Assembly (NCBI GenBank): GCA_031553535.1
Contig: JAVBLM010000017.1
Location: forward strand, 13,542-77,541
DNA: 64,000 nt
Origin: Bacteroidales bacterium
GTDB taxonomy: Bacteria > Bacteroidota > Bacteroidia > Bacteroidales > WCHB1-69
Reading direction: 5' to 3'
Part shown: positions 13,379 through 43,387 of the stretch, in pieces
Layout: each line of letters opens with the position of its first letter
Position numbering within the stretch: the stretch's first letter is position 1
Made by a program: the position numbers and the translations under genes
Notes under the pieces: model-generated
Seen by the model: the letters and a program-made list of their open reading frames with translations, nothing else
What the model was told of the DNA's origin: nothing
The model's database searches: none

Positions 13379-14146
13379 ATGGAACTCAAAGGAAAAACGT
13401 TCATTGTAACCGGAGGGGACAACGACATAGGAAAAGAACTGATTGCAATATTATTGTCAAAAAAATGCAAAGTAATTGCCGTGAATTTCAAAGAATCAAC
13501 CTTACAACAAACAATAAATAATGATTTTTTGACGGTTTTAACTGCTGATATAACCAATGAAAAATCGGTTGAATTATTGTATGAAAAATCACTTTCTATT
13601 TATGGAACTATCGACGGGATTATTAACAATGCCGGAATTATCAAGCCTTTCCGGAATTTAAACGATTTAAGCTTTGAAACAATTGAACGCATTTTCAATA
13701 TTAATTATTACGGGACTTTATATTTATCCAAGATATTCCTTCCTTATTTGTTCTCTCGTCCGGAAGCAAATCTTGTTCTTAGTGTAGGGCCTTCTTTGTC
13801 TGTCTCACAAAAAGCAACTTGCCGAAACTCTAAAGTGATGTCTTCCCTTAAAATGCTGGTGGAAGGATTACGTTCGGAATTGTTGGACACAACTATAAAA
13901 GTAATGACTGTCGCTTCGGGGATCATTCCGGCCAGTAATAATCAAAAAGATAGTTCTACAATATTTCCTTCGGATGCAGCTCTGGCGATTATAAACGGAA
14001 TGGAAAAAGGATCTGCATATATTGACATTGCCAGAAATTCAACTTATATATCCCGTTCGAGTCTATTTATTCACCAAATAATAAAAAGAATAGCTAATTA
14101 TAGACTAATTAAACAAAAAAATCAGAATCAATATGATGTTAATTAA
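13379..14146 (+). CDS. SDR-family protein with degenerate catalytic motifs
   Basis: INNAGII retained; TGGDNDIG in place of TGxxxGIG; no YxxxK. Confidence 0.7.
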   Translation: MELKGKTFIVTGGDNDIGKELIAILLSKKCKVIAVNFKESTLQQTINNDFLTVLTADITNEKSVELLYEKSLSIYGTIDGIINNAGIIKPFRNLNDLSFETIERIFNINYYGTLYLSKIFLPYLFSRPEANLVLSVGPSLSVSQKATCRNSKVMSSLKMLVEGLRSELLDTTIKVMTVASGIIPASNNQKDSSTIFPSDAALAIINGMEKGSAYIDIARNSTYISRSSLFIHQIIKRIANYRLIKQKNQNQYDVN

Positions 14147-21543: not shown

Positions 21544-24500
21544 TTATTGAACAATCACTTTCATTCTACCTTTTATTTCTCCTCTTGTTGTTAAACTAAT
21601 AATATAGCTTCCCGGATTTTGCGGCATTTCTACCTGTAAAGAAGCATCCGGGTTTTGTATACTAATGAGACGTCCTTCTATATCATAAATAGACACCACG
21701 ATGTCTTCAAATTCTTCATTTGTTAGTGATGTTTCAATCGTTGCAAAAGATGATGTTTGAGAAGGGTTCGGGAAGATCGACATCTTCAGACTCTTGCTAT
21801 TCATTAAAATAGGACATAACGGAACATTTGTAAATGCCTTTCCATTCTGATCTGTACCTGATACTACAGCATGGTAATATCCTCCTTCGGAAGGCCTGAT
21901 ATTGTTTTTGGTTTCTCCCTGAAGCAATGTATTATCCTTATACCATTTAAAGGAAGTGAATTGATATCCGCCATTATTTACAGGATTATTGATCACAGAA
22001 AGGGAGTTTCCGATCCGTTCCTTGTAGAACTCGGTTCCAAACGGGATTACAACATTTACAGTATAAGTTTTATGATGGTTTCCATCGGCAGAAGTTACTT
22101 CTATCAAAAGGGTTTGTATCCCCGGTTCAAGGAAAGTAAATGTCTGCGAATTTCCACTTACACCATTCATGGTTACTGTTCCTGACTGAGCCGGAGTAGC
22201 CGTAATAGTAGAGGAATTATCTCCACAAGAAAGAGTAAGGGTATAATCCAGCATATCAGAATCGAATGCAGGAGATAACACACCCGTGCTGGCAGTAAGT
22301 CCATCCAGGTATGCATCGGAAGAGGAAAGAATGGTTACCGTAACCATCGCCGTATCGCTACAGCCGGAAGCATTAACTCCAACAATATAATATTGATTTA
22401 CACCCTCGGTAGATACAATATTTCCGACAGAGTTGAAATTGTTGTCATAATAAGTAAAACTTGTGATGCCTGCAATAGAGCCTGACTTAAGCGTCAAAGC
22501 AGACAAATCAACCGTTGCGGGAACATATACCGTGTCGGGGTCTGCAAAGCTGAACTCCGGCTTGGCAAGAATAGTCACATTGGTAACAGATGATGTATCC
22601 ATACATCCGCCTGCATTGCTGACAACTACTTTCACTGTTCCTATTGTGGTACCGTTCCATTGGATAGAAGCAATATTGGTATTTCCACCTGCAATAACAG
22701 TACCTTCTTCCACAATCCATTCATAGAAAGCCACACCGGAGATGGTTGTATATTCTTCTACACTGCCGGCACACACTGATGCAGCGCCTGTGATAGCAGG
22801 AGTAGTATGATCGTCAATAATAATATTAACTAACAATGATGTGTCGGTACAACCATTTGTATTGGTAACAGCTACCTCGATTGTTCCGCTGCCTGCTGTA
22901 CCCCAATCGATCGTTACCATATCGGTTGGTCCGCCTGAAGTTATCAGACCTCCGGTTACAATCCATTCGTAAGAAATCATATCGGAAGCAGTAGAGTAAA
23001 TCTCGGTTGAGTTGGTACATACTGTTTTGTTACCGGTAATATCCGGTGAAGGAAGCGCATTGATAGTTACCTCGATTGTATCCGAACCGAAACAGTTACC
23101 ATTGCTATATGTTACGATAACTTCTCCCGTACCGGCAGCTGTCCAATCCACGGTAATACTGTTGCTATTATGACCTGTGGCGATGGTTCCTCCGGTTACC
23201 GTCCATGCATAATTACTTTTGCCAGATTCTGTACCATATGTTTCCGTTGTGTTTTCACATACGGACAACGTACCTGTAATTACAGGTTCCGGCAAGGGGT
23301 TAACAACCAATGTATCATATACGGCAAGCAGTGTAAGATCACTCACACATCCTGTCATCGTATTTTCTATGGACAACAATTGAGAGATAGTAGTCACTAT
23401 AGGTTGAACCGGAATGGTATAGCTTGTAGCAGGTGTTGGAGATTCCAATTCTTCCACTGTACCCCACGTTGCTCCATTATCCGTAGATAGCCGGTAAGTT
23501 ACTTTGTTCCCGTTATTGGTTACGTTACTGAAAATAAAGTTAGCCGATTCGCCGACGCAAATGGTATCTTTATCCAAAGCAAGGTTAGCGGTTGGTAATT
23601 GGTTCACTGTAATGGTATCATAGATTCCTAATCCTGAAACGTCATAACTACATCCTGTTAATGTGTTTCCCACAAGTAATAACTGTGCAACGGCATTGGA
23701 AGTAGGAGCAATTTTCAATATATCGGATGATGTTAAGATAATATTAGCTCCTATCGGAACATTATTACCTGAAAGAAATGTAAAAGTCAATGTATCTGCT
23801 CCGTTGGTCACCGTTCCGATAGTTATGGTTACGGTATCCCCGGTACATATTTCTGTTGTAGAGAAAGAAAGATTACCGGTAGGAAGACCCACAAGGTCAA
23901 CTGTTCCTTTAATCGAATCACCCCATGTTATGGCTCTATCGGCTGCATCTACAATATAGATATTATAGCCAACGCCTGTATGTGGATTTATGGATTTACT
24001 TGCCAATGTAAAATACGAGGTTGCATCCGTTAATGGGAATCCTGTTAGAGGATGGCCAAAATAGCCTTTCCCGGTCACGTTATCGATAGACATTGGAGCA
24101 AAGGTACCGGTAGCCGTACCATCCAAACTGTATTTTAATTCCAGTGAGTCGGCAAGTGCCGGATTGAGAAGCTCTACGCATACCAAAGCATCTTCTCCTG
24201 CTTTACAATTGGCAACGACAGAAACAGAAAAAGGAACTTCGGTACATGTGACCTCTGCCCCCGAAGCCAAGTCCGTGTTAAGTACAGGTTCAGGCAGTGC
24301 CGTTACGGATACTGTGATGTTTTGTAAATCAGTACTTGTATTTACGCATCCTGTTACCGTATTTTCCAAGCTCATCACTCTGGCCATATAACTGCCTAGC
24401 GCCAAGGGCCCAAAGGTAATTGTGTAGGATGATTCTCCGGGTTCCCCTTCAAGTGTTTGTGTTGCGCCCCACATTGATCCACCATCAGTGCTCAATTGAT

Positions 24501-27336
24501 ATCCTATTTTATTCGTTCCATTTGTTATATTGATAACCGATAAGCTTGCCGTTTCGTCGAGACAGGTAATAGAAGATGACAAGGACAACTCTGCTGTTGG
24601 GAGGCCGGCAAGACTTACCGATCCTGCTATTACATTTCCATAAACAGTAGTATCAACTGCATCTACCATAGCAAACGAATAGTTTACAGTGTCATGAAAC
24701 AGGGTAGATTTACTGGAGATTCTGAAAGAAGACGTGGCATTTATTAAAGGAAATCCCGTTACAGGGCCAAAGAAAGCTTTTCCATTGGAAGCAAAAGAGA
24801 TGGGATACCATTGGCTGTTCATCGTTTCTTTATATTGCAGTTCCAAAGAATCAATAAACAGAGGATCTATTTGGATCAAAGCTTTCACCATCACCTTATT
24901 TTCACAAGTTGTTGAGGTTAAGCCGGTAGATACCTGGAACTCGGTATAATTACAAATTATCGTATCCTTGTCATCCATTCCAACAACCGATAACATCGGC
25001 ATTGCATGCAGGTTTACTGTCTTTTGCATTTCCGCTAAAACAATGGAAGGAGAAGTTGCATCAAGCAATTGCATAACAACAGGCACATTGGAATGCTCCG
25101 CAAAAGATTTTCCGGTTATCCTGAACTTAGATTCAATACCATCTGTCATAGGGAATCCTGTCGAAGGGCCAAAGTAGGCATCTCCCTGACTGTTAAAAGT
25201 CAGCGGTATATATTTTCCTGCATTTACACCTTGTACTTCCAGATATTCAACCAGAATGGAATCCTGTAATGGCGGATCTATATGAGTTAAAGTTCTCACC
25301 ATGTGTCCCCCGCAGTCCGTATGTGTCTGTATAGTACAGGTATCCCGGATACATATATCGGTAGGATAATCATCCGAAGTTAACGAATCACCCTGAACAT
25401 TATTTAGATAAAGAGTGATCCATGGTGATTGAGCCCATACCTGGTTATATTGGCTTGGCTGAGAGGCAGCACCTCTGTCAACACCATCAACCAGTAACAA
25501 TGCAAATTGTATAGTATCTTTGGTTGTTTTTGTAGTCGTCTTGATACGGAAAGCCAAATATCCTGACTCTAAGCCCGACACAGCAACATTTTGCCACAAT
25601 AGAAACTCTCCGGGTTTTCCACTAACCGGCCTGTCCTTAACCGGGTTACTATACGGTTCTCCTAACCATTCAAAATATAAATTTCCGCCAGCATCTACCG
25701 ATAATGGATAAAACTCCACTAAACCAATATCGCTGGAATCTTTAAACTTAATTACTTGATTAGAAGCAGCTCCACTTTTGCAACCGGCTTGTATATCGAA
25801 AACGAGATCATGCTCTTCGTTATTAGCAAAATCACAGGTATAGGTGAAAATATCGGCCAATGGATCGCCGCTAATAAATTCGGAAGGTTTTCCGGAAGTG
25901 TTGTATTTTTTAGGTTGACCATTTACTACGAGTAAGGAATCAACGTATGCTTCGCCGCCCTTTTCGGAATTTCCAAAGCCAATAGCGGGAATGTCAACCA
26001 ACCCATCTACATATAGCGTATATTCCTGGCTTTCGTACCAAACTTCATTATATCCGTGAGGTTGATGACCGGCATAGTCAGTCGTCTTGGAGAAATCGGT
26101 ACTGTCAACAAACTTAATGGTAAAGCGGATTGTATCCTTACCGGTTACATTAGCTGTTTTTACCGGTTTTAGAATGAAAGGTTGCGAGTCCATATTTGCT
26201 TGGTTTTGCCAAAAGATAAACTCACCGGGTTTGTTGGTTACAGGCCGGGTATAAACAGGATTTCCGTAGCTATTATCAATATCCAGCCAATCCCATGCAA
26301 ACGGATTGGGAGAAAACGCAGTTTGGACTATTGGGAAAAATTCAAGTTTCCCCACATCTGCCGAATCTTTAAAACAGATCACCTTGTTGGATGGCAGGTC
26401 TACTTTACATCCTGCACTCACCTCAAATATCAAATTTGTTGAATCCAATGGAGTTGTAGTTTCCCCGGTAGATTTGAAATTGTTAAAACAGGTATAAGCA
26501 GGGAGCGGAGTAGTAGCTATGTCCGGATTAAACACAAAATCGGTTGCATTTCCTGAAATTATTCCATATTGTGCCATAGCAGCAAATTGAGCATCTCCCG
26601 CCATAGCGGAGGTAATTCCAATCTGGGGATCAACATAAATAGTAATTTCCGCGCTTTGTGCAATTACTGTCGTATAATCATGAGGTACGCCCAATAAAGT
26701 CTTTGAAGGATTGGTGTTGTCTACCAGCAAGATTTTAAAGCTGATACTTTTGGCTGTCGTCAATTTCGCAGTAGGGATGATTTTAAAAGCGAGAGTGGAA
26801 TCGACCGAGGTAAGTTTGGTCGCATCCTCCCACAAAATATACTCTCCCGGCTTATCGGTAACATACCTGTGCAGCACAGGATAACCGTAGGTATTGTCCA
26901 TCTCCAACCATTCCCATTTAAGCGTGTCATTATCAAATATCAATGGATAGAATCCAACCAATGCGGCATCGTCAGGATTTGAAAAAGCGATCACTTTATT
27001 GCAAGTATCACCCGGATTACCTACAATTGGAATCATAAATACAAGATTACCGGAATCCAAACTGACAGGTGAAGCGGGACTGCCCGGTGCAAGAGAAGCG
27101 GTTGTTTTCTCACTGCACGTATACACATGTTTCGATGGATCGTTGGAATACACATACTCCATGAGGTTATTCCCAACACTGGGATATTTACCCGGAGCAA
27201 GAGAGTTGAAGTAAGCAGCTCCCGCTAATTTGGCATCACCGAATCCGGTAAAGGATATGCTCATCTGTGCCTTAGATTCAAAGATTGAAAATAAAAGCGC
27301 AGAGGCCAAGATCAATTTAATAAAATTGTTTCTCAT
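21544..27336 (-). CDS. Large T9SS-secreted surface protein (3 unknown N-terminal repeats, 3 FGPxTGFP domains, PKD-like and cadherin-like domains, C-terminal sorting domain)
   Basis: Signal peptide ending KA-Q; internal repeats; Y.WTVTGG PKD-like units; LSPAFDS..Y cadherin-like; IFPNPS..IYDIEGRLI..KVIVQ. Confidence 0.88.
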   Translation of the reverse strand: MRNNFIKLILASALLFSIFESKAQMSISFTGFGDAKLAGAAYFNSLAPGKYPSVGNNLMEYVYSNDPSKHVYTCSEKTTASLAPGSPASPVSLDSGNLVFMIPIVGNPGDTCNKVIAFSNPDDAALVGFYPLIFDNDTLKWEWLEMDNTYGYPVLHRYVTDKPGEYILWEDATKLTSVDSTLAFKIIPTAKLTTAKSISFKILLVDNTNPSKTLLGVPHDYTTVIAQSAEITIYVDPQIGITSAMAGDAQFAAMAQYGIISGNATDFVFNPDIATTPLPAYTCFNNFKSTGETTTPLDSTNLIFEVSAGCKVDLPSNKVICFKDSADVGKLEFFPIVQTAFSPNPFAWDWLDIDNSYGNPVYTRPVTNKPGEFIFWQNQANMDSQPFILKPVKTANVTGKDTIRFTIKFVDSTDFSKTTDYAGHQPHGYNEVWYESQEYTLYVDGLVDIPAIGFGNSEKGGEAYVDSLLVVNGQPKKYNTSGKPSEFISGDPLADIFTYTCDFANNEEHDLVFDIQAGCKSGAASNQVIKFKDSSDIGLVEFYPLSVDAGGNLYFEWLGEPYSNPVKDRPVSGKPGEFLLWQNVAVSGLESGYLAFRIKTTTKTTKDTIQFALLLVDGVDRGAASQPSQYNQVWAQSPWITLYLNNVQGDSLTSDDYPTDICIRDTCTIQTHTDCGGHMVRTLTHIDPPLQDSILVEYLEVQGVNAGKYIPLTFNSQGDAYFGPSTGFPMTDGIESKFRITGKSFAEHSNVPVVMQLLDATSPSIVLAEMQKTVNLHAMPMLSVVGMDDKDTIICNYTEFQVSTGLTSTTCENKVMVKALIQIDPLFIDSLELQYKETMNSQWYPISFASNGKAFFGPVTGFPLINATSSFRISSKSTLFHDTVNYSFAMVDAVDTTVYGNVIAGSVSLAGLPTAELSLSSSITCLDETASLSVINITNGTNKIGYQLSTDGGSMWGATQTLEGEPGESSYTITFGPLALGSYMARVMSLENTVTGCVNTSTDLQNITVSVTALPEPVLNTDLASGAEVTCTEVPFSVSVVANCKAGEDALVCVELLNPALADSLELKYSLDGTATGTFAPMSIDNVTGKGYFGHPLTGFPLTDATSYFTLASKSINPHTGVGYNIYIVDAADRAITWGDSIKGTVDLVGLPTGNLSFSTTEICTGDTVTITIGTVTNGADTLTFTFLSGNNVPIGANIILTSSDILKIAPTSNAVAQLLLVGNTLTGCSYDVSGLGIYDTITVNQLPTANLALDKDTICVGESANFIFSNVTNNGNKVTYRLSTDNGATWGTVEELESPTPATSYTIPVQPIVTTISQLLSIENTMTGCVSDLTLLAVYDTLVVNPLPEPVITGTLSVCENTTETYGTESGKSNYAWTVTGGTIATGHNSNSITVDWTAAGTGEVIVTYSNGNCFGSDTIEVTINALPSPDITGNKTVCTNSTEIYSTASDMISYEWIVTGGLITSGGPTDMVTIDWGTAGSGTIEVAVTNTNGCTDTSLLVNIIIDDHTTPAITGAASVCAGSVEEYTTISGVAFYEWIVEEGTVIAGGNTNIASIQWNGTTIGTVKVVVSNAGGCMDTSSVTNVTILAKPEFSFADPDTVYVPATVDLSALTLKSGSIAGITSFTYYDNNFNSVGNIVSTEGVNQYYIVGVNASGCSDTAMVTVTILSSSDAYLDGLTASTGVLSPAFDSDMLDYTLTLSCGDNSSTITATPAQSGTVTMNGVSGNSQTFTFLEPGIQTLLIEVTSADGNHHKTYTVNVVIPFGTEFYKERIGNSLSVINNPVNNGGYQFTSFKWYKDNTLLQGETKNNIRPSEGGYYHAVVSGTDQNGKAFTNVPLCPILMNSKSLKMSIFPNPSQTSSFATIETSLTNEEFEDIVVSIYDIEGRLISIQNPDASLQVEMPQNPGSYIISLTTRGEIKGRMKVIVQ

Positions 27337-32372: not shown

Positions 32373-32755
32373 CAAACGAAATAAATCGCGACGGGCTGTA
32401 TTATTAAGAAAACGATTAGAACACACATGGTGAGAATGGGAATCATCAATGACGTGCAACCCCTGTTTATCTAAAGTCATAAAATGAATCTATCCAACCA
32501 GGCAGGGCAAGCGCATTAAAACAACAATGAAAATATAAATATAGAATAATCAAACGAATACATTTTCTCATTGTTTGATTGCTTTTCATTGGATACTATC
32601 AATGACATTTTGCTGATCTTTCTTTTCATTATTGCAATATATTTTGATTTTAATATAATACTGTTTTCGAGAAGAAATTAATAACAAACACCCCTGCAAC
32701 AAGAACCACGCAAGGCTGTATTTGAAAAATTACTGGGCGTGGAATAAGGCCGTGT

Positions 32756-32820
32756 TAAAGTGTCCGGCGCTTACGGGCGTAAGCGTTGCTCGCTTACGCC
32801 CGTAAGCGTCCGACGCTTTA
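32756..32820. repeat. GC-rich nested palindrome (perfect 18-bp inverted repeat whose arms are themselves palindromes)
   Basis: CGCTTACGGGCGTAAGCG (32768-32785) ttgct CGCTTACGCCCGTAAGCG (32791-32808). Confidence 0.9.
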
Positions 32821-32873
32821 AAGCGGAAGCACTACCGTCAGCAATCAGGGATAGAAAAGGAAACAAGAACACC

Positions 32874-32960: not shown

Positions 32961-33006
32961 CGTCATGCTGAACTTGTTTCAGCATCCCCGTCTTTAAGGA
33001 TGACGG
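32961..33006. repeat. REP-like hairpin GTCATGCTGAACTTGTTTCAGCATC
   Basis: atgctgaa/ttcagcat stem, closed by gtcat..atgac. Confidence 0.65.
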
Positions 33007-33030: not shown

Positions 33031-33178
33031 TTGAACCGAGTTTGCGAGCTCAACGAAATTAATCTTGAAATCTTAAAATATTAAATCTTAAAATTAACAA
33101 CTAACTGATAATTAACAATTAATAACTAACAACTAAATTTTGAACCGAGCCTGCTAGCTCAACGAAGTTAATCTTGAA
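33031..33178 (+). repeat. Dispersed 39-bp repeat copies 2 and 3 separated by heptamer repeats
   Basis: 33031-33069 and 33140-33178 match 1552-1590; taacaac/taactaa/aatctta-type units between. Confidence 0.85.
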
Positions 33179-33543: not shown

Positions 33544-33903
33544 TTAAGAAGGGTCAGGATATTTGTTTTTTAAATTATGAATAAGATCTTCCTGAGTGGC
33601 AATTGTTTTATTCTGAGCATCTATAACTTTCTTAAGCGCATCTATTATTTCCTGTTCATTAAATCTTTTTTTTTCATTTTCTTGGATTGGTTCGGAAGAG
33701 GACACGGCTCCTTCTTTCCGTAACATTTCACCTTTTCCGGTTAAAAGCCAATTCGCATCAATTACGATATATTTATTTAGTAATTTTTCTATGATATCAT
33801 AGCTTGGTTTGTTCTTATATTTATAAATATTTAGTAATACGGCTTCAGAAATCCCTGTCTCTTGTGAGAATTTATACCTTGTATATCCAAGATAATCAAT
33901 CAC
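33544..33903 (-). CDS. XRE/cI-like HTH repressor with C-terminal coiled coil (5' end apparently frameshifted; upstream ATG at 33953)
   Basis: YKFSQETGISEAVL..KPSYDIIEKLL..DANWLLTGKGEM; no S24 peptidase domain. Confidence 0.85.
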   Translation of the reverse strand: MIDYLGYTRYKFSQETGISEAVLLNIYKYKNKPSYDIIEKLLNKYIVIDANWLLTGKGEMLRKEGAVSSSEPIQENEKKRFNEQEIIDALKKVIDAQNKTIATQEDLIHNLKNKYPDPS

Positions 33904-34050: not shown

Positions 34051-34236
34051 ATGAAAACATTTAATAAAGAATTACCTCAATTTTTACCGCATGGCTGGCG
34101 GACGGAAGTTGCTAAATCGTTAAATATTCACAGAAATACTGTTTATAAGGCAATAAAGCGTGGAGAAGATGATATTACTTATCGAAAAATAATACATGTC
34201 CTCGAACAAAAATACGGAGAACAGAAAATTAAATGA
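34051..34236 (+). CDS. Small Cro-like HTH protein divergent from the repressor
   Basis: 61 aa; LPHGWRTEVAKSLNIHRNTVYKAIK helix-turn-helix. Confidence 0.75.
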   Translation: MKTFNKELPQFLPHGWRTEVAKSLNIHRNTVYKAIKRGEDDITYRKIIHVLEQKYGEQKIK

Positions 34237-34783
34237 TTTCTTTTAGTAGAAATTCATTCATTATTTCTAAAAAAGAGGAAAAAATCAAAAATAGTTTTCA
34301 TTTCAATTAATTAGTTTTAGATTTTAAATTAAAGTTCTTTTATTATGAAAAAAACCTAAATATTAACGGATAGATATGCATTCTTATTATTGATATTTTA
34401 AAATTATTTTTTATGGGAAGGGTTTGTAAACATTTATATATTTTATTATTTGTACAATTTTATTATTATTTGCTTGAAAGAAAATCACAAAGATTGATTG
34501 GTCAATCCATTGATTTTTTTCGGTTTCCCATCGACGATGATGTAAATCCCAATATACTGAATAATTCTTATTCTAACTCTGTGACATCTTGTGTTACAGG
34601 AGTATGTGATCCCATATTTTGTAATTCCCCTTTAAGATTATAGCACAATACAAATCAAGGCTTAATGATTTTTCGTGAAGCCAAAGAAAACAAGCTGATA
34701 AGCAAAGCCGCTACTTGAAAAATACTAGGAAGAAGCCGAAAATCCTTTTACAGAGTAGGCATAAATTTAAACAAATAACGAAC

Positions 34784-37700
34784 ATGAAGAGGGTTTTATT
34801 TTTATTAACAGTAACCTTGCTGTATTTACAGCAAGTACAAGCACAACGTCAAACATGGACAGAAGATTTTGACGGCACTTTACCTCCCCCTGGATGGACG
34901 GTTTCTTCCACTTCCTTAAGTGGATCCTGGCAGCCCAATACGGTCTACTATAAACCGGGTTCATCTTCAACAAATCCCCAGTCCTACCGGGGAAAGTTAC
35001 CCGGTAATCCGGGAGATTCTATTGTCTTAACGACACCACCTTACGATTGTACGACTTTTGAGTATGTTTACCTGCGCTTCAGCCATATTTGCAAAGTATC
35101 TCCCAAAGACACTGTAAAGATACTATACCGTATAGATGGCATGGGTGCCTGGAATCCCCTGCCGGGAGGATCTTACTACCTGGGAACCTCCAATTATAAC
35201 AGTGCCAGAGGCTTTTATGCAGGCAGTTATCCCGAGTGGCGGGCGGACGACAGTACTGTTTTTCCACAGCAATCCTGGTGGCGGGACGAATTATTTGATT
35301 TGTCCGCTGTAGCAGGCATTGCGCGGGTGGAATTCCGTTTTATTATCAAGCATGGAAGCGTATATGGAACACATGTTTCCTACGGTTGGCTCCTGGATAA
35401 TTTCCAGTTGGATGCAGCCGTGCATGAGATATATCCCCCTACAGTAGAATTCATATCCCCTTATGTAAGGGATACGGTTTACAATACAGGCCCGTGGGAA
35501 ATTAATGCAAAGGTAAAAACCAACACAAGTGCTCCTATTAAAACACCCTGGCTAAAATACAGGGCAACATATAATGGAACGCTTGTTGAGTCCGATTCCA
35601 TCTTAATGACGCATGTCAGGGGTGATTCCTTATGGAGGGCAACCATTAAACAATTTATTGCAGGTACGGAAATTTCGTATTCTGTTACGGGAATTGATAG
35701 CGTTTGGAATACATCAACAGCAAATTCCGGTTATATCATTGCAATAGGGTCTGGAGAAACTCTTGTATTACAGGATGGCAGTACTTCTGTCGGATATTAT
35801 CCGTTTCAGCACGGCTATGGTTACAGTCGTTCCATGGCATTGTACCCGGCAGCAGAAATGGATAAAAAAGTACCGGGGCAGATATCGACTGTAGCCTTAC
35901 GGGTGGCTACAGCAGGGAGTGCCGGTTTTCCCATGAAAATATGGTTGGCGACAGTTCCGGCAAATAAAACCACATGGGATGCCACTGCCGACAATTTGGA
36001 TTGGGCGGTTTTGACGCAAAATGCAACATTGGTATATGATGATGTTTTCCGTTTTGCTACAACGGGTTGGAATGATATTTCGTTAACGAATATGTTTAAT
36101 TATAATGGGACGGACAATCTGGTGGTACTATTTGAACAGAATTGTACAGGCACTTCCTGTGGTAGCTGGATGTCCACCTATTCGCAGTATTATTATTCAA
36201 CAACACAAACAGAAAGGCTATGGTATAAATATTCAGATAATGCTGCCCCAACGGCAAGTTCAACCTTATATCGGTATGCCTACCGTCCGGATTTACGTAT
36301 AGGTGTTATTGGAACCACTGATTCTGTTACAGTGGCAATGCATTCCATTAATATGTCGGATACGGCTGTAATATCCCCTATGACGATGCTCCCTGTTGTC
36401 GCGACTATTAAAAATAAAGGATCGTTAAATTTAGCATCGACAGTAGTATCTTATTCCGTTAATAGCGCTGCCCCTATATCCAAAAACTGGTACATTACTC
36501 CGGGTTTGCCATGGGATTTTAACTATCAGGATACGGTAGGCTATTATACTCCCAAGGTAAACGGCTTTGATACGTTGGTTGTATGGGTCAGTTCCCCTAA
36601 TGGACAGATAGATGTTATAACCTGGGATGATACCTTAACAAAGGTCGTCTACAGTAGCACTGATATGTTTGCCAAATTTGTTAACTCTCCTGCTGATACG
36701 GTATATTCAACAGGGCCTTACGAGATAAAGGTAAAGATATCTACACTATCGGGAACGCCCGTTAATCAGGTACCCTTACAGGTTGCTTGTACGTATGAAG
36801 GAATAACGACGAATGATATTTTAACCATGGCTTTAGACGCATCGGACAATTTATGGAAAACCAGTATTCCTCAGAAGCGTGCCGGTACGGATGTGGCTTA
36901 TTCAATTAACCTGACAGATATTTTAGGCAATAATATACTGTTATCAGGCAGCTATCATATAAAATTATCTTGCGGTAGTAGCATTGCCGGAGTTGCGGAT
37001 TTCCAATATACAGGAAATATGCAATCTGTAATGCTTTCCCCAGGGAAATATGAGTTAGAATGTTGGGGTGCAGAAGGCGGAGCTACCAATGGTGGGGGTG
37101 CTGCTAGTGGCATTTCCAAAATTGCAGGTAAAGGAGGTTATTCTGTAGGGACAATAACTTTAACATCGCGAACTACGGTATATGTTTATGTTGGTGGACA
37201 AGGACTTTCGCAAGCCATTTCGGCTCCCGGAGGATTTAATGGAGGAGGTAATTCTGGCGCAGGCGCAGTAATTGCATGCGGTAGCGGTGGTGGCGCATCA
37301 GATATAAGGCTAGGCGTAGATGATTTGTACGCAAGAGTTATCGTTGCAGGTGGCGGCGGTGCGGCAGGTTTTCAGGAATGTAATGGCTCTAGCGGCGTTA
37401 TTTCAGGAGGTCATGGAGGAGGAACAACAGGGGGAACTCCTATAGCAGGTAGTTATGCTGCAAGGATAGGCCAGGGTGGCACGCAAATGGCCGGTGGTGC
37501 CGGTGGTGCCGAAACTTATGGAAATGGAAATCCGGGTAGTTTTGGTTTAGGCGGAAATGGAGCTGCAAGTGGCACTAGTGCTAACGGTGCCGGCGGCGGT
37601 GGTGGCTGGTACGGCGGTGGAGCAGGTGCTAATGGCTCTAATTGTGCAGCTGGCGGTGGTGGCGGATCCGGTTACGTCTATACCTTGGCAACGGCAAGTA

Positions 37701-40700
37701 ATTATCCGGCAGGTTGTTTACTTCCTAATTCACATTACCTTGCCGATGCCCAAATTATGGGAGGGAACCAATCGTTTTTAGGTCCAGATACTATAAGCGA
37801 AGTAGGACATTCAGGAAACGGATATGTACGGATAAGAACCATATCCCTCTTCGGTGATTGTCCGGATTATGCCGCAGGAACCTATTCCATAGATATGCCT
37901 GATACGATAATGGTATCCCCTGCAGCATTTCCGGTAGTAGCAACCATACGCAATGCAGGTGTACTGGATATAGATTCGGCGATAGTGTCATATAGTGTTA
38001 ACGGTTCTGTTCCCGTATCTAAAAAATGGTATTCTAATCCTGCCCTGCCGTGGGATTTCAATCATCAGGATACGGTAGGTTATTACGCTCCCAAGCTAAA
38101 CGGCTATGATACGCTGGTAGTATGGGTGAGCTTACCCAATGGAGAGATAGACACCATAACCTGGGACGATACCCTGACAAAAGTCATCTACGGCACTGCC
38201 GACATGTTCATCGCATTTGTTAATCCCCCTGCCGACACGGTATTTGCAACAGGCCCTTATGAGATAAAGGCAAGGGTATCCACCTTATCGGGAACGCCTG
38301 TCACTCAGGTGCCTTTACATCTTGCCTATACACATGAAGGAGTAACTACCCATGATATATTATCCATGAACCTGGACGCAGCGGATAATTTATGGAAAAC
38401 GATCATACCTCAAAAACGTTTTGGTACGGATGTGGCCTATTCCATTAACCTGACGGATCTTTTAGGAAATAATATACTGTCGTCGGATAGCTATTTTATT
38501 AAAAAGGTTTGCAGTGGTGGTAGAACCTGTGATACCAATTCGGTAGCATTGAAGTCTGTTAATTCTCCCGGAAACAGCGGGGAACCGGCGGCAATCCCTG
38601 TTCCGGTGCATGTGACCATCCTTAATAAAGGAATAGCCGATCTGGATTCCTGTTTCCTGAACTGGAGTTTAAATGGGGTGGTACAACCCGGAACAACGGT
38701 ATATAAAGGGAAGCTGCTGGATGATTTTACCGACACAATTACCATCGGATACTATATTGCTGTGGCCGGCAAGCGGGATACTGTGGCAGCATGGGTAAGC
38801 ATGCCCAACGGGCATCAGGATTCCACTACGAAGGATGATACATTAAGGGTTTCTCCTCTGGGATGCGCTTCTGTTCTTGCCGGAACATACCGGATAGGTC
38901 AGGGCGGGGCCTTTGCAAGCTTGGATGATGCCTTAACTTCAATACGTAATTGCGGGGTGAACGACCATATTACCTTAGAGTTGAAAGGGACAGATACAAC
39001 GAATGTAAATTTAAGTAATATGTCGGATTATATGCGGGGTTATACCTTAACGATAACCTCGTACGACCATGATGCCGATAGCGCTGTTATTTATGTTAAG
39101 TCCGGTACAGGAATAACATTCAATAATACAAGTAATATCGTATTTAACAATATTACTATAGATGGAAGAAACAGCAACGCACATGTTGTGAGTTTTACAG
39201 CAAAGGCAGATAATATAGTATTTAATCATTGTAAGATTCTGGGTAGCCCTACTACAACAAGCGGTTATTATTGCTTTTATAAAACATCAGGTACGGGTAT
39301 ATTGAATAAATTGACAGTGAAAAACTGTATTGTTGACGGGGGGCATACCGGAATATATTTCTATGTAGGCAGTGGAGACCGTGCAGGAATCACCAACATC
39401 TATATAGACAGCAATAAGTTTATAAATCAATATCACACAGGAGTATATTGTTATTATGTATACCCCACTAGTATTTCTTATAATAGCATTGCTCCCCGTT
39501 CGGCCGGCCAGGGAACCACATGGTACGGCATTAATGTCTATGAAGGGCGCAGCCTGTCAAGCGGCAGTAAGATTGTAGGGAACAGGATACATTCGGATAA
39601 TCCGGGAATAAGCAGTACCCTGTATGGAATGCGGACATATTATGTAGACAGTATGCTGGTGACAAATAATGAAATATATTTGCATTCATCGGCAAGTACG
39701 ACGTATGGGCTTTATATAGATTATCCCAAGGGAGTTGATTATTTACATAACAGTATATTGCTCACAGGTACGGGTGGTTCTACATTTATAGCGGTTTATT
39801 GGTATACATACGAAAATACATCCTGGGATGCGACGATGAAGAATAATATTTTTATTGCCAATGGACCGAACGCAGCATACGCAATGTATTTAATTGCAAG
39901 TCCTGCGTCCTATGCTGCCAATCACAGGATAGATTACAATAATTATTATTCCTCGGGAACCAATATGGGTTATGCCGGTACGGCACGTACAGACTTGGCA
40001 GCTTGGCGATCGGCAGTTACCACCGATATTCATTCGGTAAATATATTGCCGGAGTTTACAGATGTAAGCAGCAGCCTGATATTGGATAATTATACTTCCG
40101 TATTTTGTCCGCGGCTTCCGGGATGTACCGATGATTTACTCAAGGCTCCAAGGAGGTCGACTACTTCAATGGGGGCTTATACGATGCCGATTTCGAGTTT
40201 TGACTTGATGAATTTAGCTGTTACCAACGTACCGGCTACCGTGGTAAAAGGCCAAACCGTTACAGTAAAAGTGAATGTTATTGGTTTGGGTGATACGCTT
40301 ATCCGGAATGCAACTTTTGGATGGTCTCTCAATGGCGTTACACAAACACCACCGCCCACCCATACTTTCGCACCAGTCTTAAATACGTTTCAAACGGCAG
40401 AAATAACCATAGGTACTTTCGCCGCACAGGATACGGTAACAGATATTGTAGTTTGGATAGATCAGGTTAACGGCAAAAAGGATGATAACAGATACAACGA
40501 TACAGCAAATTTCACACTTGTTAGAGTTCCTATGATAGAATTCATGGCTCCTTTTGTAGAGGATACTATTTTTCAGTTATCATTTGGTGTAAATGCGAGA
40601 ATAAATAACGGTACGGGTGCGCCTGTTTCTATTCCTAAACTGTATATACAGACAACAGTAAATGGAAACTATCAATTATACGATAGTATTACCATGGTAC

Positions 40701-43387
40701 GAAGCGGATCCGTCTGGTCGGCAACTGTTCCATCGCAATATTACGGCAGTAAAGTTGTTTATTCATTAACCGTATCCGATAATGTAGGAAATACCGAAAC
40801 AATAACGGATTCTACCTATATAAAATTCAGTGGGAAGGTCACCAGCGGTGATATGACAGTACCGCAAACAGGAAGTAACAGTTATAGCATATGTGGAACC
40901 GTTTATCCTAATTTAGGACCTGCATCCGGAACCAGTGGGGGATATTCAAACAGTTGTAATGGATATTCGGTTATATATCCTGCATTTCCGGGTGTTCTGC
41001 TCCAGGTTTCGGGCAGTTTTGCAACAGAATCGTGTTGTGATTATGTACAGATATACGATGGGGTAGGAATTGGAGGAACAATGTTAGGAGAATACCGGGG
41101 GACGGGAACGATTCCTACCTTAACGTCAACAACCGGACCTATTACGATTAGATTTTATTCCGATGGGTCTGTTAATACAGCTAGTAATGCTAATTACACC
41201 GGCTTTGTTATCCAGGTCAATTGTTACGGGAGCACGCTGTATCCTGATAATCAGTTAGCTGTTTTTAATGTGGTTTCCCCTGTAAATAGCCTTGAGGAAT
41301 TGTGTGAACCCGATAATGCTCCTGTAAAAATTGCTGTATCTAATCTGGGCGAAAATGATTACAATTTCGCTGCAAACCCCATAGAATTAGGAGCAAGGAT
41401 TATCAACCCACTTGGACATGATACTGTTTACATAAGGAGAATAGCCGGCGGGACTTTAGTGTCCGGCAAAACGGATACAATGGAGATTGTACCGGCCATA
41501 CCTGTTATGTATGCAGGATATTATGATATTAAAGCCTGGGTAAGTAGTCCGATAGACTATATTGTTTATGATGATACCATTCATTATACATACCTGTCCG
41601 GAAAAGTAGGGTTACCTGTAGACGAAGATTTTAGCGGAAGCAATCTACCTTCCCAGTTTGTACCCAAACTTCTTGTGGGGACAAATACTTGGACGCCTTA
41701 TCAGCCCGATACCAATGTTTCCCCTGTTAAACCACAATTTGGTGCAGGAATGCTCCGTTTTGCAGGAACTGTCGGAACGATGGCTATATTAAGTACCCGT
41801 CAATTGGATATGCATGGAGCAGTCAATCCGAAGTTAGAGTTCTGGTATTTTCATGATACGGCCGTCTCCGTCAGGGATGAGTCTTATACGGATGTTAAGA
41901 TTGTTGCCGATGGTGTTTCCTCAACGGTATTATCCGTTTCTAAAAAAGGCAGCACATATGGCTGGACACAATATACGGTGAATTTAAGTTCCTATGCAAC
42001 CGCCCAATGTGTATTGATAGAATTTGTATCCACGAATGATAATAAATCGGGATTGCAATCCGAACAATATATCGACCGTATTATTATCACCTCCGACCAG
42101 GATCTGGCAATATCGGAAATCTTTATAACACCGGAAATAACCGCTTGTGATTTGAAGAATAAAGACGTATATGTTATTATTCGTGCGCCCATGGCCCAGG
42201 CGATTGATTTTTTACGTTACCCGACAGGCCTGACTGTAGATATTCCGGGTTATACAACTGTTAATTACCCTCTTCGGGGTATACTGAAAGGTAATAATTG
42301 GGATACGATTCTGATCGCTTCCAATATCAATCTGGTACCGGGTAAAAGTAATATAAGAGCATATCTGACTGTTCCTGTTGATAATAATCGTTTGAATGAC
42401 ACGGTAAGCCTTCCATTGGATATCAGTCCTTCGATTTCGGTAACGACACAACCCATATCAGGAGGAACTACGAGTTGCCTGGCAAAGGGTGGACAGATTC
42501 AACAGGAAGTGAAGGTAAAGAATACGGGCAATGTAGAAATTTCCGGAATAGAATTACTGCTGAATGTAATAACTTCTTCCCAACAAACCCTTACTAAATC
42601 AGTAGGGAGTTTGAATCCGGGAGATTCTGCTATTATCCTCTTCGATGTCTATACCGTTCCTGCCGATGCACAATACCAAGTACAGGTTGTAGGATATATG
42701 AGTTGCGATTCCGCTTTGGTAAACAGCAGCACTTCTGTCTCGGAATGTGTAGATATCCACGATCTTGCTATAACACAACTCCTAAGCCCTGACCCTCTGG
42801 ACGGGGGAATCGATCAGGTGGGTTTAACCAAGGAAATAGAAGTTTCCTTAACAAATACAAGCGATATGACAAACTATCAACATATAGATATTACTACATT
42901 GATCGAGAATGAGAATGGTCAGGTACTGGCCAGGCATGAAGATATTATCCCTGTGATTAATGCCTTGGAAAGTAATAAGTCGTTTAAATTCATAGACAAG
43001 TACACCGTTCCTAACGAAGGAGTATATTATGTAAGGGTGTTTATAAGCAAAGTAGATAATTACCAGGAAAATGATACGATCTTGGTATCACGCAGTACGC
43101 AGAACAGATTACAAATAAGAGAAGATAATGTATTTACAATGAGACAGAATATTCCAAATCCGACGGATAACAGTACTATAATAAGGTATAGTGTTCCGGA
43201 ATCAGGAGAGATTATCTTCCGGATCCATAGTATGAATGGTCAAATACTATATAATAGAATAATTCATTCGGAATCAGGAGATCAAAGTATCGAAATAAAT
43301 ACATTGGAATTATCATCCGGTATCTATATGTATTCGATGGAATATAAAGATCAACGTATAGTAAAACGCATGATTATAAAACGATAA
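34784..43387 (+). CDS. Giant modular T9SS-secreted surface protein/adhesin (MAM-like, CARDB/Ig-like scaffold repeats, Gly-rich, beta-helix, CUB, C-terminal sorting domain)
   Basis: Signal peptide from ATG 34784; EDFD..PPGW..GWLLDNF; ECWGAEGG..GGGASDIR..ARVIVAGGGG Gly-rich domain; TESCCDYVQIYDG..RFYSDGSV CUB; QNIPNP..LSSGIYMY..KRMIIKR. Confidence 0.92.
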   Translation: MKRVLFLLTVTLLYLQQVQAQRQTWTEDFDGTLPPPGWTVSSTSLSGSWQPNTVYYKPGSSSTNPQSYRGKLPGNPGDSIVLTTPPYDCTTFEYVYLRFSHICKVSPKDTVKILYRIDGMGAWNPLPGGSYYLGTSNYNSARGFYAGSYPEWRADDSTVFPQQSWWRDELFDLSAVAGIARVEFRFIIKHGSVYGTHVSYGWLLDNFQLDAAVHEIYPPTVEFISPYVRDTVYNTGPWEINAKVKTNTSAPIKTPWLKYRATYNGTLVESDSILMTHVRGDSLWRATIKQFIAGTEISYSVTGIDSVWNTSTANSGYIIAIGSGETLVLQDGSTSVGYYPFQHGYGYSRSMALYPAAEMDKKVPGQISTVALRVATAGSAGFPMKIWLATVPANKTTWDATADNLDWAVLTQNATLVYDDVFRFATTGWNDISLTNMFNYNGTDNLVVLFEQNCTGTSCGSWMSTYSQYYYSTTQTERLWYKYSDNAAPTASSTLYRYAYRPDLRIGVIGTTDSVTVAMHSINMSDTAVISPMTMLPVVATIKNKGSLNLASTVVSYSVNSAAPISKNWYITPGLPWDFNYQDTVGYYTPKVNGFDTLVVWVSSPNGQIDVITWDDTLTKVVYSSTDMFAKFVNSPADTVYSTGPYEIKVKISTLSGTPVNQVPLQVACTYEGITTNDILTMALDASDNLWKTSIPQKRAGTDVAYSINLTDILGNNILLSGSYHIKLSCGSSIAGVADFQYTGNMQSVMLSPGKYELECWGAEGGATNGGGAASGISKIAGKGGYSVGTITLTSRTTVYVYVGGQGLSQAISAPGGFNGGGNSGAGAVIACGSGGGASDIRLGVDDLYARVIVAGGGGAAGFQECNGSSGVISGGHGGGTTGGTPIAGSYAARIGQGGTQMAGGAGGAETYGNGNPGSFGLGGNGAASGTSANGAGGGGGWYGGGAGANGSNCAAGGGGGSGYVYTLATASNYPAGCLLPNSHYLADAQIMGGNQSFLGPDTISEVGHSGNGYVRIRTISLFGDCPDYAAGTYSIDMPDTIMVSPAAFPVVATIRNAGVLDIDSAIVSYSVNGSVPVSKKWYSNPALPWDFNHQDTVGYYAPKLNGYDTLVVWVSLPNGEIDTITWDDTLTKVIYGTADMFIAFVNPPADTVFATGPYEIKARVSTLSGTPVTQVPLHLAYTHEGVTTHDILSMNLDAADNLWKTIIPQKRFGTDVAYSINLTDLLGNNILSSDSYFIKKVCSGGRTCDTNSVALKSVNSPGNSGEPAAIPVPVHVTILNKGIADLDSCFLNWSLNGVVQPGTTVYKGKLLDDFTDTITIGYYIAVAGKRDTVAAWVSMPNGHQDSTTKDDTLRVSPLGCASVLAGTYRIGQGGAFASLDDALTSIRNCGVNDHITLELKGTDTTNVNLSNMSDYMRGYTLTITSYDHDADSAVIYVKSGTGITFNNTSNIVFNNITIDGRNSNAHVVSFTAKADNIVFNHCKILGSPTTTSGYYCFYKTSGTGILNKLTVKNCIVDGGHTGIYFYVGSGDRAGITNIYIDSNKFINQYHTGVYCYYVYPTSISYNSIAPRSAGQGTTWYGINVYEGRSLSSGSKIVGNRIHSDNPGISSTLYGMRTYYVDSMLVTNNEIYLHSSASTTYGLYIDYPKGVDYLHNSILLTGTGGSTFIAVYWYTYENTSWDATMKNNIFIANGPNAAYAMYLIASPASYAANHRIDYNNYYSSGTNMGYAGTARTDLAAWRSAVTTDIHSVNILPEFTDVSSSLILDNYTSVFCPRLPGCTDDLLKAPRRSTTSMGAYTMPISSFDLMNLAVTNVPATVVKGQTVTVKVNVIGLGDTLIRNATFGWSLNGVTQTPPPTHTFAPVLNTFQTAEITIGTFAAQDTVTDIVVWIDQVNGKKDDNRYNDTANFTLVRVPMIEFMAPFVEDTIFQLSFGVNARINNGTGAPVSIPKLYIQTTVNGNYQLYDSITMVRSGSVWSATVPSQYYGSKVVYSLTVSDNVGNTETITDSTYIKFSGKVTSGDMTVPQTGSNSYSICGTVYPNLGPASGTSGGYSNSCNGYSVIYPAFPGVLLQVSGSFATESCCDYVQIYDGVGIGGTMLGEYRGTGTIPTLTSTTGPITIRFYSDGSVNTASNANYTGFVIQVNCYGSTLYPDNQLAVFNVVSPVNSLEELCEPDNAPVKIAVSNLGENDYNFAANPIELGARIINPLGHDTVYIRRIAGGTLVSGKTDTMEIVPAIPVMYAGYYDIKAWVSSPIDYIVYDDTIHYTYLSGKVGLPVDEDFSGSNLPSQFVPKLLVGTNTWTPYQPDTNVSPVKPQFGAGMLRFAGTVGTMAILSTRQLDMHGAVNPKLEFWYFHDTAVSVRDESYTDVKIVADGVSSTVLSVSKKGSTYGWTQYTVNLSSYATAQCVLIEFVSTNDNKSGLQSEQYIDRIIITSDQDLAISEIFITPEITACDLKNKDVYVIIRAPMAQAIDFLRYPTGLTVDIPGYTTVNYPLRGILKGNNWDTILIASNINLVPGKSNIRAYLTVPVDNNRLNDTVSLPLDISPSISVTTQPISGGTTSCLAKGGQIQQEVKVKNTGNVEISGIELLLNVITSSQQTLTKSVGSLNPGDSAIILFDVYTVPADAQYQVQVVGYMSCDSALVNSSTSVSECVDIHDLAITQLLSPDPLDGGIDQVGLTKEIEVSLTNTSDMTNYQHIDITTLIENENGQVLARHEDIIPVINALESNKSFKFIDKYTVPNEGVYYVRVFISKVDNYQENDTILVSRSTQNRLQIREDNVFTMRQNIPNPTDNSTIIRYSVPESGEIIFRIHSMNGQILYNRIIHSESGDQSIEINTLELSSGIYMYSMEYKDQRIVKRMIIKR

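Follow-up and report, generated by a model that had tools for sequence, protein, structure and literature searches.

A probable domain-swap junction in a large, lineage-restricted family of giant, putatively surface-exposed proteins of a Bacteroidales bacterium

The 64,000-nucleotide (nt) stretch analyzed here (the window; positions 13,542 to 77,541 of contig JAVBLM010000017.1, assembly GCA_031553535.1, Bacteroidales bacterium) carries a giant open reading frame (ORF) at 34715-43387 on its forward strand, which belongs to a family of 53 paralogues in its own genome. We estimate at about 70% the probability that this is an old, lineage-restricted family with a recurrent domain-swap junction, each gene encoding a probable adhesin or ligand-binding fibril. 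The junction joins an Ig-like spacer domain (B) to a CARDB-like spacer domain (A) and is probably an evolutionary hot spot, at which a domain of the jelly-roll type was repeatedly gained, lost, or replaced.

Written as a string of modules, the giant gene reads NBXABGABAHABUAMASAT (Table 1), where N is a family-specific N-terminal domain, X a lectin-like jelly-roll, G a glycine-rich domain of the ALK/LTK type, U a CUB domain, H a right-handed beta-helix, M a MAM-like domain, S an unnamed domain, and T a sorting tail of the type IX secretion system (T9SS). The junctions that follow the four B domains, referred to below as slots, contain X, G, only the linker VCSGGRTCD, and U, respectively. No other gene of the family displays all four slot states, and the slot architecture sits wholly within the ORF. 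This layout bears out the descriptive part of a sequence-only reading of the window, which had seen a duplicated block of about 205 amino acids (aa) with clear DNA similarity, diverged copies of its second half near 35435 and 40528, and different content after each of four Ig-like halves.

The A-B block is duplicated at the DNA level. blastn aligned 36444-36964 with 37983-38503 at 76.6% identity over 521 nt (E 1.7e-110), and 460 of the 625 aligned columns between 36341-36963 and 37882-38503 were identical (73.6%), as opposed to a mean of 48% and a maximum of 50.7% in 200 shuffles. In the protein, a BLAST comparison of fragments with chunks of the same protein matched residues 529-753 to residues 1043-1266 (E 1.6e-66), the identity in 120-aa windows reaching 81%; self-BLASTP of the whole protein gave the identity hit alone. 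The same comparison located the A copies at residues ~529-641, 1043-1160, 1271-1402, and 1849-1930 and the B copies at residues 242-358, 642-757, 1160-1266, and 1939-2056. B2 and B3 were mutual best matches (77%). The outer, diverged B copies (nt ~35444-35746 and 40535-40828) were recognized at E values of 1e-12 to 1e-18, and a 43-nt remnant of their DNA similarity persists (35438-35480 versus 40529-40571, 74% identical). A family of 20-nt direct repeats, D2, sits at the ends of B and the starts of A; it reflects a common strand motif, YSI(N/D)..D, and a deletion between its copies would truncate B.

Profile searches named some of the modules. G matched ALK_LTK_GRD (PF12810) with 148.6 bits against a cut-off of 24.5 (E 4e-43, residues 771-1042), spanning profile positions 2-242 of 243. 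The match of slot 4 to CUB (PF00431) was partial, covering profile positions 46-104 of 110 with 22.8 bits (cut-off 21.4). A1 alone remained below the CARDB cut-off (PF07705; 13.6 versus 22.7 bits), and PF07705 is found among the precomputed domains of many full-length homologues of the giant protein. For N, B, and X, a Pfam scan of the modules returned no model.

The family was delineated across the entire genome (3.88 Mb in 78 contigs), where the A-B-G-A-B segment found 151 matching places, distributed over dozens of open frames that measure 2000-4700 aa. ORFs of at least 1000 aa account for 24.8% of the DNA in this genome. Hidden Markov models (HMMs) built from the giant gene's own copies, and iterated, recovered 118 B domains, spread over 53 ORFs, and 387 A domains, spread over 59. 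The 53 paralogues sum to 509,232 nt, or 13.1% of the genome. Clustering of the stretches between A and B domains yielded the module alphabet: 53 copies of N (~223 aa), 65 of X (~190 aa), 10 of G, 3 of U, 157 of H (~448 aa), and 51 of M (~169 aa), together with S (~122 aa) and the tail T. The family follows the grammar N-(B-[X, G, U, or none]-A)1-3-(H-A)1-7-(B-[..]-A)0-1-M-A-S-A-T. Modules X, G, and U always followed B directly; none stood behind an A, H, M, or S module, and 155 of the 157 H modules lay between two A domains. The 50 complete genes display 35 distinct architectures. The grammar was also kept in two external sets of 44 and 100 members, which showed no single fixed order of domains, so that the first refuting outcome named in the sequence-only reading, one identical order and content in all homologues, did not occur: 35 architectures were distinct among the 44 members of the first set and 44 among the 54 complete members of the second.

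The distribution of the family is narrow. Compared with 53 matches to the N domain in the present genome, three congeneric genomes, all of them fragmented assemblies, contained 13, 2, and 6; other genomes of the taxonomic family contained 0-7, and the domain was present in 1 of the 16 other families of the order. Among 1.84 billion cluster representatives, a query composed of N and B1 retrieved 617 proteins at E <= 0.001, 225 of them at E <= 1e-30. Homologues with a public name are called either "hypothetical protein" or [quoted passage not shown]. The best-matching public sequencing run was an invertebrate gut metagenome. Our literature searches found no account of this family or its grammar.

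A few family members depart from the intact form. Two genes, at G000:C3:13331-20979 and G000:C11:542-10113, each break up into a pair of overlapping ORFs (NBXAHAH plus HABAMASAT and NBXAH plus HAHAHAHAMAS, respectively), which look like frameshifts or sequencing errors. A truncated copy, NBAH, is found at C42:35000-36964.

We tabulated what follows each B domain. In the present genome, the 118 B domains were followed by X in 65 cases, by nothing other than a linker of 4-14 aa in 37, by G in 10, by U in 3, and by another B in 3. The first external set contained 119 slots (71 X, 32 G, 13 empty, 1 U, and 2 odd ones), and the second, which was fetched with the N+B1 query and is unbiased for slot content, contained 177 (104 X, 58 empty, 7 G, and 8 others). 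All eight of the latter belong to proteins that end straight after the passenger. Thus, no fourth kind of passenger was found in the 414 slots. The junction is truly variable and has sharp edges, but a combinatorial display of exchangeable domains, as proposed in the sequence-only reading, is not supported, given just three kinds of passenger.

Two unusual arrangements were seen at the slots. The only case of B followed directly by B is the gene at G000:C3:2560-10674, with four tandem B domains separated by single residues (NBBBBXA...). An external homologue, P0024, reads B-G-X-G-65-A, which may represent an X nested within G or two partial matches to G.

The sharpness of the edges, predicted by the sequence-only reading as breakpoints at the scaffold borders, was evident in pairwise alignments of collinear paralogues that are about 70% identical and differ only at a slot. 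The genes C44_2325 and C19_17024 were 56-86% identical in every 60-column window save at one junction, where the first has X and the second U. At two different slots, one member of the pair C33_229328 and C19_27403 had G and the other cleanly lacked it, and X was present versus absent at one slot in C3_97105 and C58_20529.

Slot content also changed often along the trees. When the 118 B domains were placed on a tree, 4 changes were needed for the position class of the domain (first, middle, or after the helices) and 27 for slot content, the latter being an upper estimate; 200 shuffles were run as a control, and the five printed ones gave 44-47 changes. By the same kind of upper estimate, first-slot content changed 9 times in the N+B1 tree (shuffles: mean 14.1, minimum 11) and last-slot content 17 times in the C-terminal tree (shuffles: mean 27.7, minimum 22).

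The borders of certain slots are marked by cysteines. Slot 2 is flanked by Cys753 (nt 36971-36973) and Cys1049 (nt 37859-37861), which are as far from the B end and the A start, respectively, as the two cysteines in the linker of slot 3; the mirror arrangement described in the sequence-only reading is thus exact. Among 42 G slots (10 own and 32 external), 21 had both border cysteines, 21 had neither, and none had a single one. All 21 Cys-flanked G slots lay upstream of the beta-helix block, as opposed to 2 of the 21 Cys-less ones, the other 19 being the last slot before M. The 50 empty linkers, own and external, contained no cysteine in 34 cases, two in 15, and one in 1. Flanking cysteines were lacking in 119 of 137 X slots, and the three U slots of the present genome had only cysteines internal to CUB. 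The pair is therefore confined to a part of the G and empty slots and is not a property of X or CUB slots. The near absence of single cysteines (21/21/0 at G slots; 15 with two and 1 with one in empty linkers) is a good indirect sign of a border disulfide, which the two residues most likely form, judging by their co-occurrence. Such a coupled pair at the borders of the upstream slots may close the empty linker or staple the base of G.

Structure predictions were obtained for two segments, and their domains were compared with known structures by VIA-align. The B1-X-A1 model (408 aa) was based on an alignment of 31 paralogous segments and had a mean predicted local distance difference test score (pLDDT) of 88.0 and a predicted TM score (pTM) of 0.60. 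The B2-G-A2 model (512 aa, 25 sequences) had a mean pLDDT of 83.6 and a pTM of 0.62, with most of the G part at pLDDT 80-97. B1 (model residues 4-110) superimposed on the Ig-like domain of the Porphyromonas gingivalis peptidylarginine deiminase PPAD (5ak7_A, 359-465) with Z 12.1, the root mean square deviation (rmsd) being 2.5 over 100 aligned residues. A1 (model residues 301-408) matched the CARDB structures 3idu (PF1109; Z 10.8, 107 aligned) and 2l0d (Z 10.1, rmsd 2.4, 100 aligned). The best likenesses of X (model residues 111-298) were with the phi812 baseplate (9euf) and the Bxb1 tail tip (9d93), both at Z 10.7, and with the lectin-like domain of Cwp84 (4ci7, Z 9.9).

G (model residues 112-401) matched ALK (678-986) and the TG domain of LTK at Z 16-17 and rmsd 2.8-3.3, with 185-201 residues aligned at 24-28% identity, and the Bxb1 tail-tip protein 9d93_Qa at Z 9.9. 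A profile of the G alignment also recovered ALK among PDB sequences (E 2.6e-8); phmmer with a single G sequence gave no match in the same database. The chain ends of jelly-roll and TNF-type domains lie near each other, so a passenger of this type could sit in a linker without pushing B and A apart. A TNF-like plus glycine-rich unit forms the receptor-binding tip of a phage tail fiber, resembling the ligand-binding region of ALK, and its glycine-rich lattice is built from loops that reach out of the TNF-like sandwich, as described in PMC9608196.

Viral look-alikes appeared in two further searches. Against BFVD, the B-X-A model matched a tailed-phage protein, A0A6J5NL19 (463 aa; E 1.4e-16, TMq 0.44, 18% identity), which outranked by far every other viral protein. 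The look-alikes of X in the ESM Atlas formed unnamed, largely viral clusters; with a best value of 0.97 and a recognition score of 2196, below the 2300 mark, they are a lead only. Proteins of quite another make also contain the G domain. Relatives from the same taxonomic family (G021 and G073) have it both as tandem arrays in frames of 6343-6694 aa and in proteins of ~520 aa, and apparent Firmicutes proteins (among P0050-P0075) contain it in groups of three or four together with Cadherin-like and dockerin domains.

Where does the passenger sit? The sequence-only reading had placed it in a disulfide-clamped display loop. A position inside a loop of a host domain was not borne out, as B and A are complete, separate domains (HMM positions 1-100 and 1-105, respectively), each with a fold match of its own. 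Because both are complete on the two sides of filled and empty slots alike, the passenger must lie in the linker between domains. Such a position would also suit a plain bead chain without any special slot, shaped by the ordinary gain and loss of tandem repeats, in which the cysteines are incidental or belong to G itself. The pTM values of 0.60-0.62, the low pLDDT at the linkers, and the Foldseek results for the whole B-X-A model, which were generic strings of beta-sandwiches (Fn3, MG, Ig) at TM 0.15-0.25, describe a flexible bead chain equally well. The large share of X slots without a flanking cysteine fits as well, as does the conservation of the modules: the median best-hit identity was 63 for B and 60 for A, compared with 54 for X, 60 for G, 46 for H, 67 for M, 74 for S, and 80 for T, so the spacers are no better conserved than other modules. 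However, passengers are restricted to the position after B, the exchange of X for U between collinear genes is a substitution at one junction rather than a change in repeat number, and the cysteines stand at constant offsets from the two spacers in filled and empty slots alike and, at G slots, appear in pairs or not at all. We therefore regard a simple bead chain as unlikely.

The giant gene itself has a composite ancestry. Its nearest relative by N and B1 is C9_126591 (NBXABXAHABUAMASAT), with a Shimodaira-Hasegawa-like approximate likelihood ratio test (SH-aLRT) support of 94. According to the nearest paralogue of each module, C19_17024, C44_2325, and C9_126591 are the closest relatives of N and of the C-terminal half (A-B-U-A-M...), whereas the middle segment, A-B-G-A-B-A, most resembles the G-bearing subfamily of C33_229328 and C63_72784. 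The gene thus appears to be a mosaic, with the ends of one subfamily and the middle of another, presumably as a result of recombination. Old recombination between subfamilies, together with the internal duplication of A-B, would have built it. Of the two slots that the duplication would have left, one now holds G and the other just the Cys-x5-Cys linker, which may be what remained when a G was lost or may be the original condition; the data fit either.

Old mosaicism should be distinguished from a running process. The sequence-only reading had envisaged a combinatorial display or antigenic-variation system, in which passengers are recombined into disulfide-clamped loops by means of conserved scaffold DNA. 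The 53 paralogues with their 35 architectures, the mosaic makeup of the giant gene with its 76.6% identical repeat, and a tyrosine recombinase gene 478 nt downstream could all be taken in its favor. However, all-against-all blastn of the 53 genes produced 1,445 high-scoring segment pairs (HSPs), the bulk of them at 60-80% identity, none of which reached 95%. Only two fell between 90% and 95%: a 990-nt 3' stretch shared by two genes of one contig and a 240-nt segment of the sorting tail. The spacer domains are not exceptionally conserved. We found no silent or partial donor cassettes in the genome, because an N domain and a tail are present in each copy (50 of the 50 complete genes); the few partial family ORFs are frameshift halves or contig-end copies. 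The downstream recombinase is an XerD equivalog (341.3 bits; cut-off 329.6) and lies beside a tRNA gene, and the inverted repeats upstream of the giant gene are only short, weak, and AT rich. Three passenger kinds in 414 slots likewise leave little to combine.

At the level of assembled contigs, slot contents were also stable between samples. Contigs from three samples of a different study, which represent an independent strain with 98-99% identity and cover 29 of 30 bins, bridge the borders B1/X, X/A1, B2/G, G/A2-B3-linker-A3, and B4/U, and the contents of all four slots were unchanged. Contigs of four runs showed a single form at all slot borders. The joints listed for the contigs were rejected as rearrangements, since their sides were 21-44 letters long and less than 95% alike and fit paralogues or the internal repeat. 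Neither the proposed shuffling through scaffold DNA nor the antigenic-variation system is thus supported by these results, and we consider a running system of this kind extremely unlikely. Under the preferred reading of an old domain-swap family, the slot changes would be old as well, produced by duplication and recombination among paralogues and followed by divergence, with no programmed or ongoing shuffling.

A related possibility is that the sequences are stable and variation is achieved in expression, with few of the 53 genes expressed at once by phase variation or mutual exclusion. The investment of 13.1% of the genome in one family and the 53 N matches, versus 0-13 in relatives, are in line with this, as is the sharing, by several family genes, of the ~65 nt directly ahead of the start codon. 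Yet neither an invertible promoter nor a dedicated invertase was found near the giant gene. Upstream blocks common to 20 of the 53 family genes at 88-98% identity were rejected as a family-specific regulatory region: they are accounted for by a dispersed repeat with 158 hits, only 16 of which are near family starts. The ~65-nt segment is exempt from this rejection. On balance, we find control of this type very unlikely.

The dispersed repeat itself is an intergenic element of ~90-150 nt that occurs in both orientations on most contigs (blastn identity of 72-100%). Copies of it occupy 32961-32989 and 33059-33122, within the gene-poor 2.4 kb that lie upstream of the giant gene.

Considering its domain types alone, the giant protein is most likely a ligand-binding fibril of the cell surface, that is, an adhesin. 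The T9SS tail, the Ig-like and CARDB-like spacers, and the presence of lectin, CUB, MAM, beta-helix, and tail-fiber-tip modules all point in this direction. The protein is built as a chain of conserved B and A spacers that alternate with the binding-type modules X, G, U, H, and M.

Several points weigh against our overall interpretation. Instead of binding a ligand, the beta-helix modules may have an enzymatic role. An assembly in 78 contigs could have collapsed or lost near-identical paralogues, and several family genes lie at contig ends. The read evidence consists of assembled contigs, in which rare variants drop out. The first external set was fetched with a G-containing query and is consequently enriched for G. 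The trees are quick ones made from short domains, for which reason the counts of slot changes are perhaps inflated, and 16 of the 49 inner branches in the N+B1 and C-terminal tree analysis had support below 80. Lastly, pLDDT fell below 50 at residues 108-113 and 403-407 of the B2-G-A2 model, which hold the border cysteines (Cys109 and Cys405).

A more elaborate version of the adhesin hypothesis would treat the B-to-A junction as a disulfide-stapled, pre-adapted docking site that holds B and A in one geometry, both when empty and when carrying a jelly-roll binding domain with adjacent chain ends, and presents X and G, domains of the phage receptor-binding type, the 53 genes being a switchable repertoire of specificities. 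If true, attachment to host cells or gut particles would resemble the variant surface-protein families of parasites. At present, we find this version decidedly doubtful.

The giant protein may be compared with several known systems. Like the T9SS cargo of P. gingivalis (PPAD, gingipains, and surface-attached adhesins), it has a Por_Secre_tail, a PPAD-like B domain, and a putative Sec-type N-terminus. Unlike PPAD and the gingipains, it is ~2900 aa long, employs its four B domains as spacers within the chain instead of a single one ahead of the tail, has no protease or deiminase domain, and contains modules (N, B, and X) without a Pfam model. A parallel in scale is provided by Synergitannerella mixotrichae, a Bacteroidales ectosymbiont of a termite-gut protist, in which 51 of 56 proteins with Ig-like domains have T9SS signals and are predicted to be adhesins (PMC12483993). 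Both are Bacteroidales of invertebrate guts with some 50 Ig-like proteins, predicted to be adhesins, that carry a T9SS tail and a signal peptide or a putative one. The S. mixotrichae genome is 3.16 Mb with 48.4% GC, compared with 3.88 Mb here and 32-45% GC in the window. The two repertoires are alike in scale and domain type, and the consulted part of that report contains no description of a domain grammar, of protein sizes, or of slots (PMC12483993).

The G module is tied to the TG domain of ALK and LTK by PF12810, by profile, and by superposition, and it invites comparison with the glycine-rich receptor-binding tips of phage tail fibers such as Pam3 gp24 and S16 gp38. What sets it apart is its use inside a bacterial surface protein, where it is an optional single module with Ig-like spacers around it; in half of the G slots, the spacer borders also contribute a cysteine pair on its two sides. 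Giant repetitive adhesins (SiiE, the ice-binding MpIBP, and the large Bap/RTX type) appeared among the structural matches of our models and share the plan of long chains of Ig-like spacers with few ligand-binding modules. They are, however, exported by type I secretion, are mostly single copy, and consist of near-identical tandem repeats, in contrast to the T9SS tail, the 53 diverged paralogues, and the strict alternation of spacers with functional modules seen here. The pilE/pilS and vlsE systems and the variable surface proteins of Mycoplasma represent cassette-based antigenic variation. The present family resembles them as a multigene surface-protein family with mosaic members but differs in that we saw no donor cassettes, near-identical tracts, dedicated recombinase, or heterogeneity at the contig level.

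At the level of its grammar, the family is undescribed as far as our literature searches reached; in kind, it represents the expansion of modular secreted surface proteins within one lineage. It offers a clean case of modular evolution, with ~50 diverged paralogues, a strict grammar, and one junction that repeatedly gains, loses, or swaps whole binding domains at exact borders. It also adds a bacterial surface protein, where the domain is optional, to the settings of the ALK-type glycine-rich domain, otherwise a part of animal receptor kinases and phage tail-fiber tips. Three of its domain families (N, B, and X) are new to Pfam, and the N+B pair is rare among cluster representatives. The family gives no evidence of a new DNA-shuffling mechanism. 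That 13% of a 3.9-Mb genome is devoted to one surface-protein family points to attachment as central to life in the invertebrate gut.

The ends of the giant gene are consistent with export. The database copy, P0002 (2867 aa), starts at Met24 of the ORF, nt 34784. The signal peptide was judged from the letters of MKRVLFLLTVTLLYLQQVQAQ and from this database start, not by a predictor. The sorting tail scored above both curated cut-offs (PF18962, 34.5 bits versus 27; TIGR04183, 40.8 versus 23) and is one of 143 matches to the Por_Secre_tail C-terminal domain in the genome. The match to the Rfam motif DUF805b in the leader ends 22 nt ahead of the start codon. Eleven such matches were found in the genome, five of which precede family genes (one each at the giant gene and C42_2768 and three in tandem before C19_171377). 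Since only three family genes are involved, DUF805b was rejected as a common leader of the family.

Table 1. Modules of the giant gene and its leader, in window coordinates
Feature	Position	Strand	Basis or remark
Rfam DUF805b cis-regulatory motif match in the 5' leader	34726..34761	+	45.8 bits versus gathering score 35.6
Start codon and signal-peptide-like N-terminus MKRVLFLLTVTLLYLQQVQAQ	34784..34846	+	Sequence read by eye; start of P0002 agrees
N, family-specific N-terminal domain (~223 aa)	34847..35443	+	No Pfam match; 53 genome copies
B1, Ig-like spacer	35444..35746	+	Self-comparison; structural match to PPAD Ig-like domain
Slot 1, X, lectin-like jelly-roll beta-sandwich (~190 aa)	35747..36325	+	No Pfam match; structure comparison
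A1, CARDB-like spacer, first half of duplicated block	36326..36643	+	Self-comparison; structural match to CARDB
B2, Ig-like spacer, second half of duplicated block	36671..36967	+	Self-comparison; PPAD Ig-like domain, Z 10.3
Slot 2, G, ALK/LTK-type TNF-like plus glycine-rich domain	36971..37870	+	PF12810, 148.6 bits
A2, CARDB-like spacer, in second copy of block	37871..38182	+	Self-comparison
B3, Ig-like spacer, in second copy of block	38210..38506	+	Self-comparison
Slot 3, empty, 9-residue Cys-x5-Cys linker VCSGGRTCD	38507..38533	+	Sequence
A3, CARDB-like spacer	38534..38851	+	Self-comparison
H, right-handed beta-helix (~448 aa)	38852..40198	+	Weak Pfam DUF4957; homologues with PF13229 (Beta_helix) and PF05048
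A4, CARDB-like spacer	40199..40513	+	Self-comparison
B4, Ig-like spacer	40535..40828	+	Self-comparison
Slot 4, U, CUB domain	40829..41245	+	Partial PF00431 match
Constant C-terminal stalk, A5-M-A6-S-A7	41246..43087	+	M MAM-like (weak, E 0.012); S ~120 aa, unnamed
T, T9SS type A C-terminal sorting domain and stop codon	43088..43387	+	PF18962, TIGR04183

The remainder of the window contains a few further items. A second giant T9SS protein of another family is encoded at 21544-27336 on the negative strand (1930 aa; three PKD_6 domains, a Cadherin-like domain, and a Por_Secre_tail). The gap upstream of the giant gene has two small ORFs, one without a family match (33544-33903, negative strand) and one with a weak similarity to excisionase-type helix-turn-helix proteins (34051-34236, positive strand; TIGR01764, E 1e-4, below the cut-off). 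A near-perfect hairpin palindrome of 36 nt (86% complementary, 5-nt loop), G+C rich within AT-rich intergenic DNA, is located at 32750-32826.

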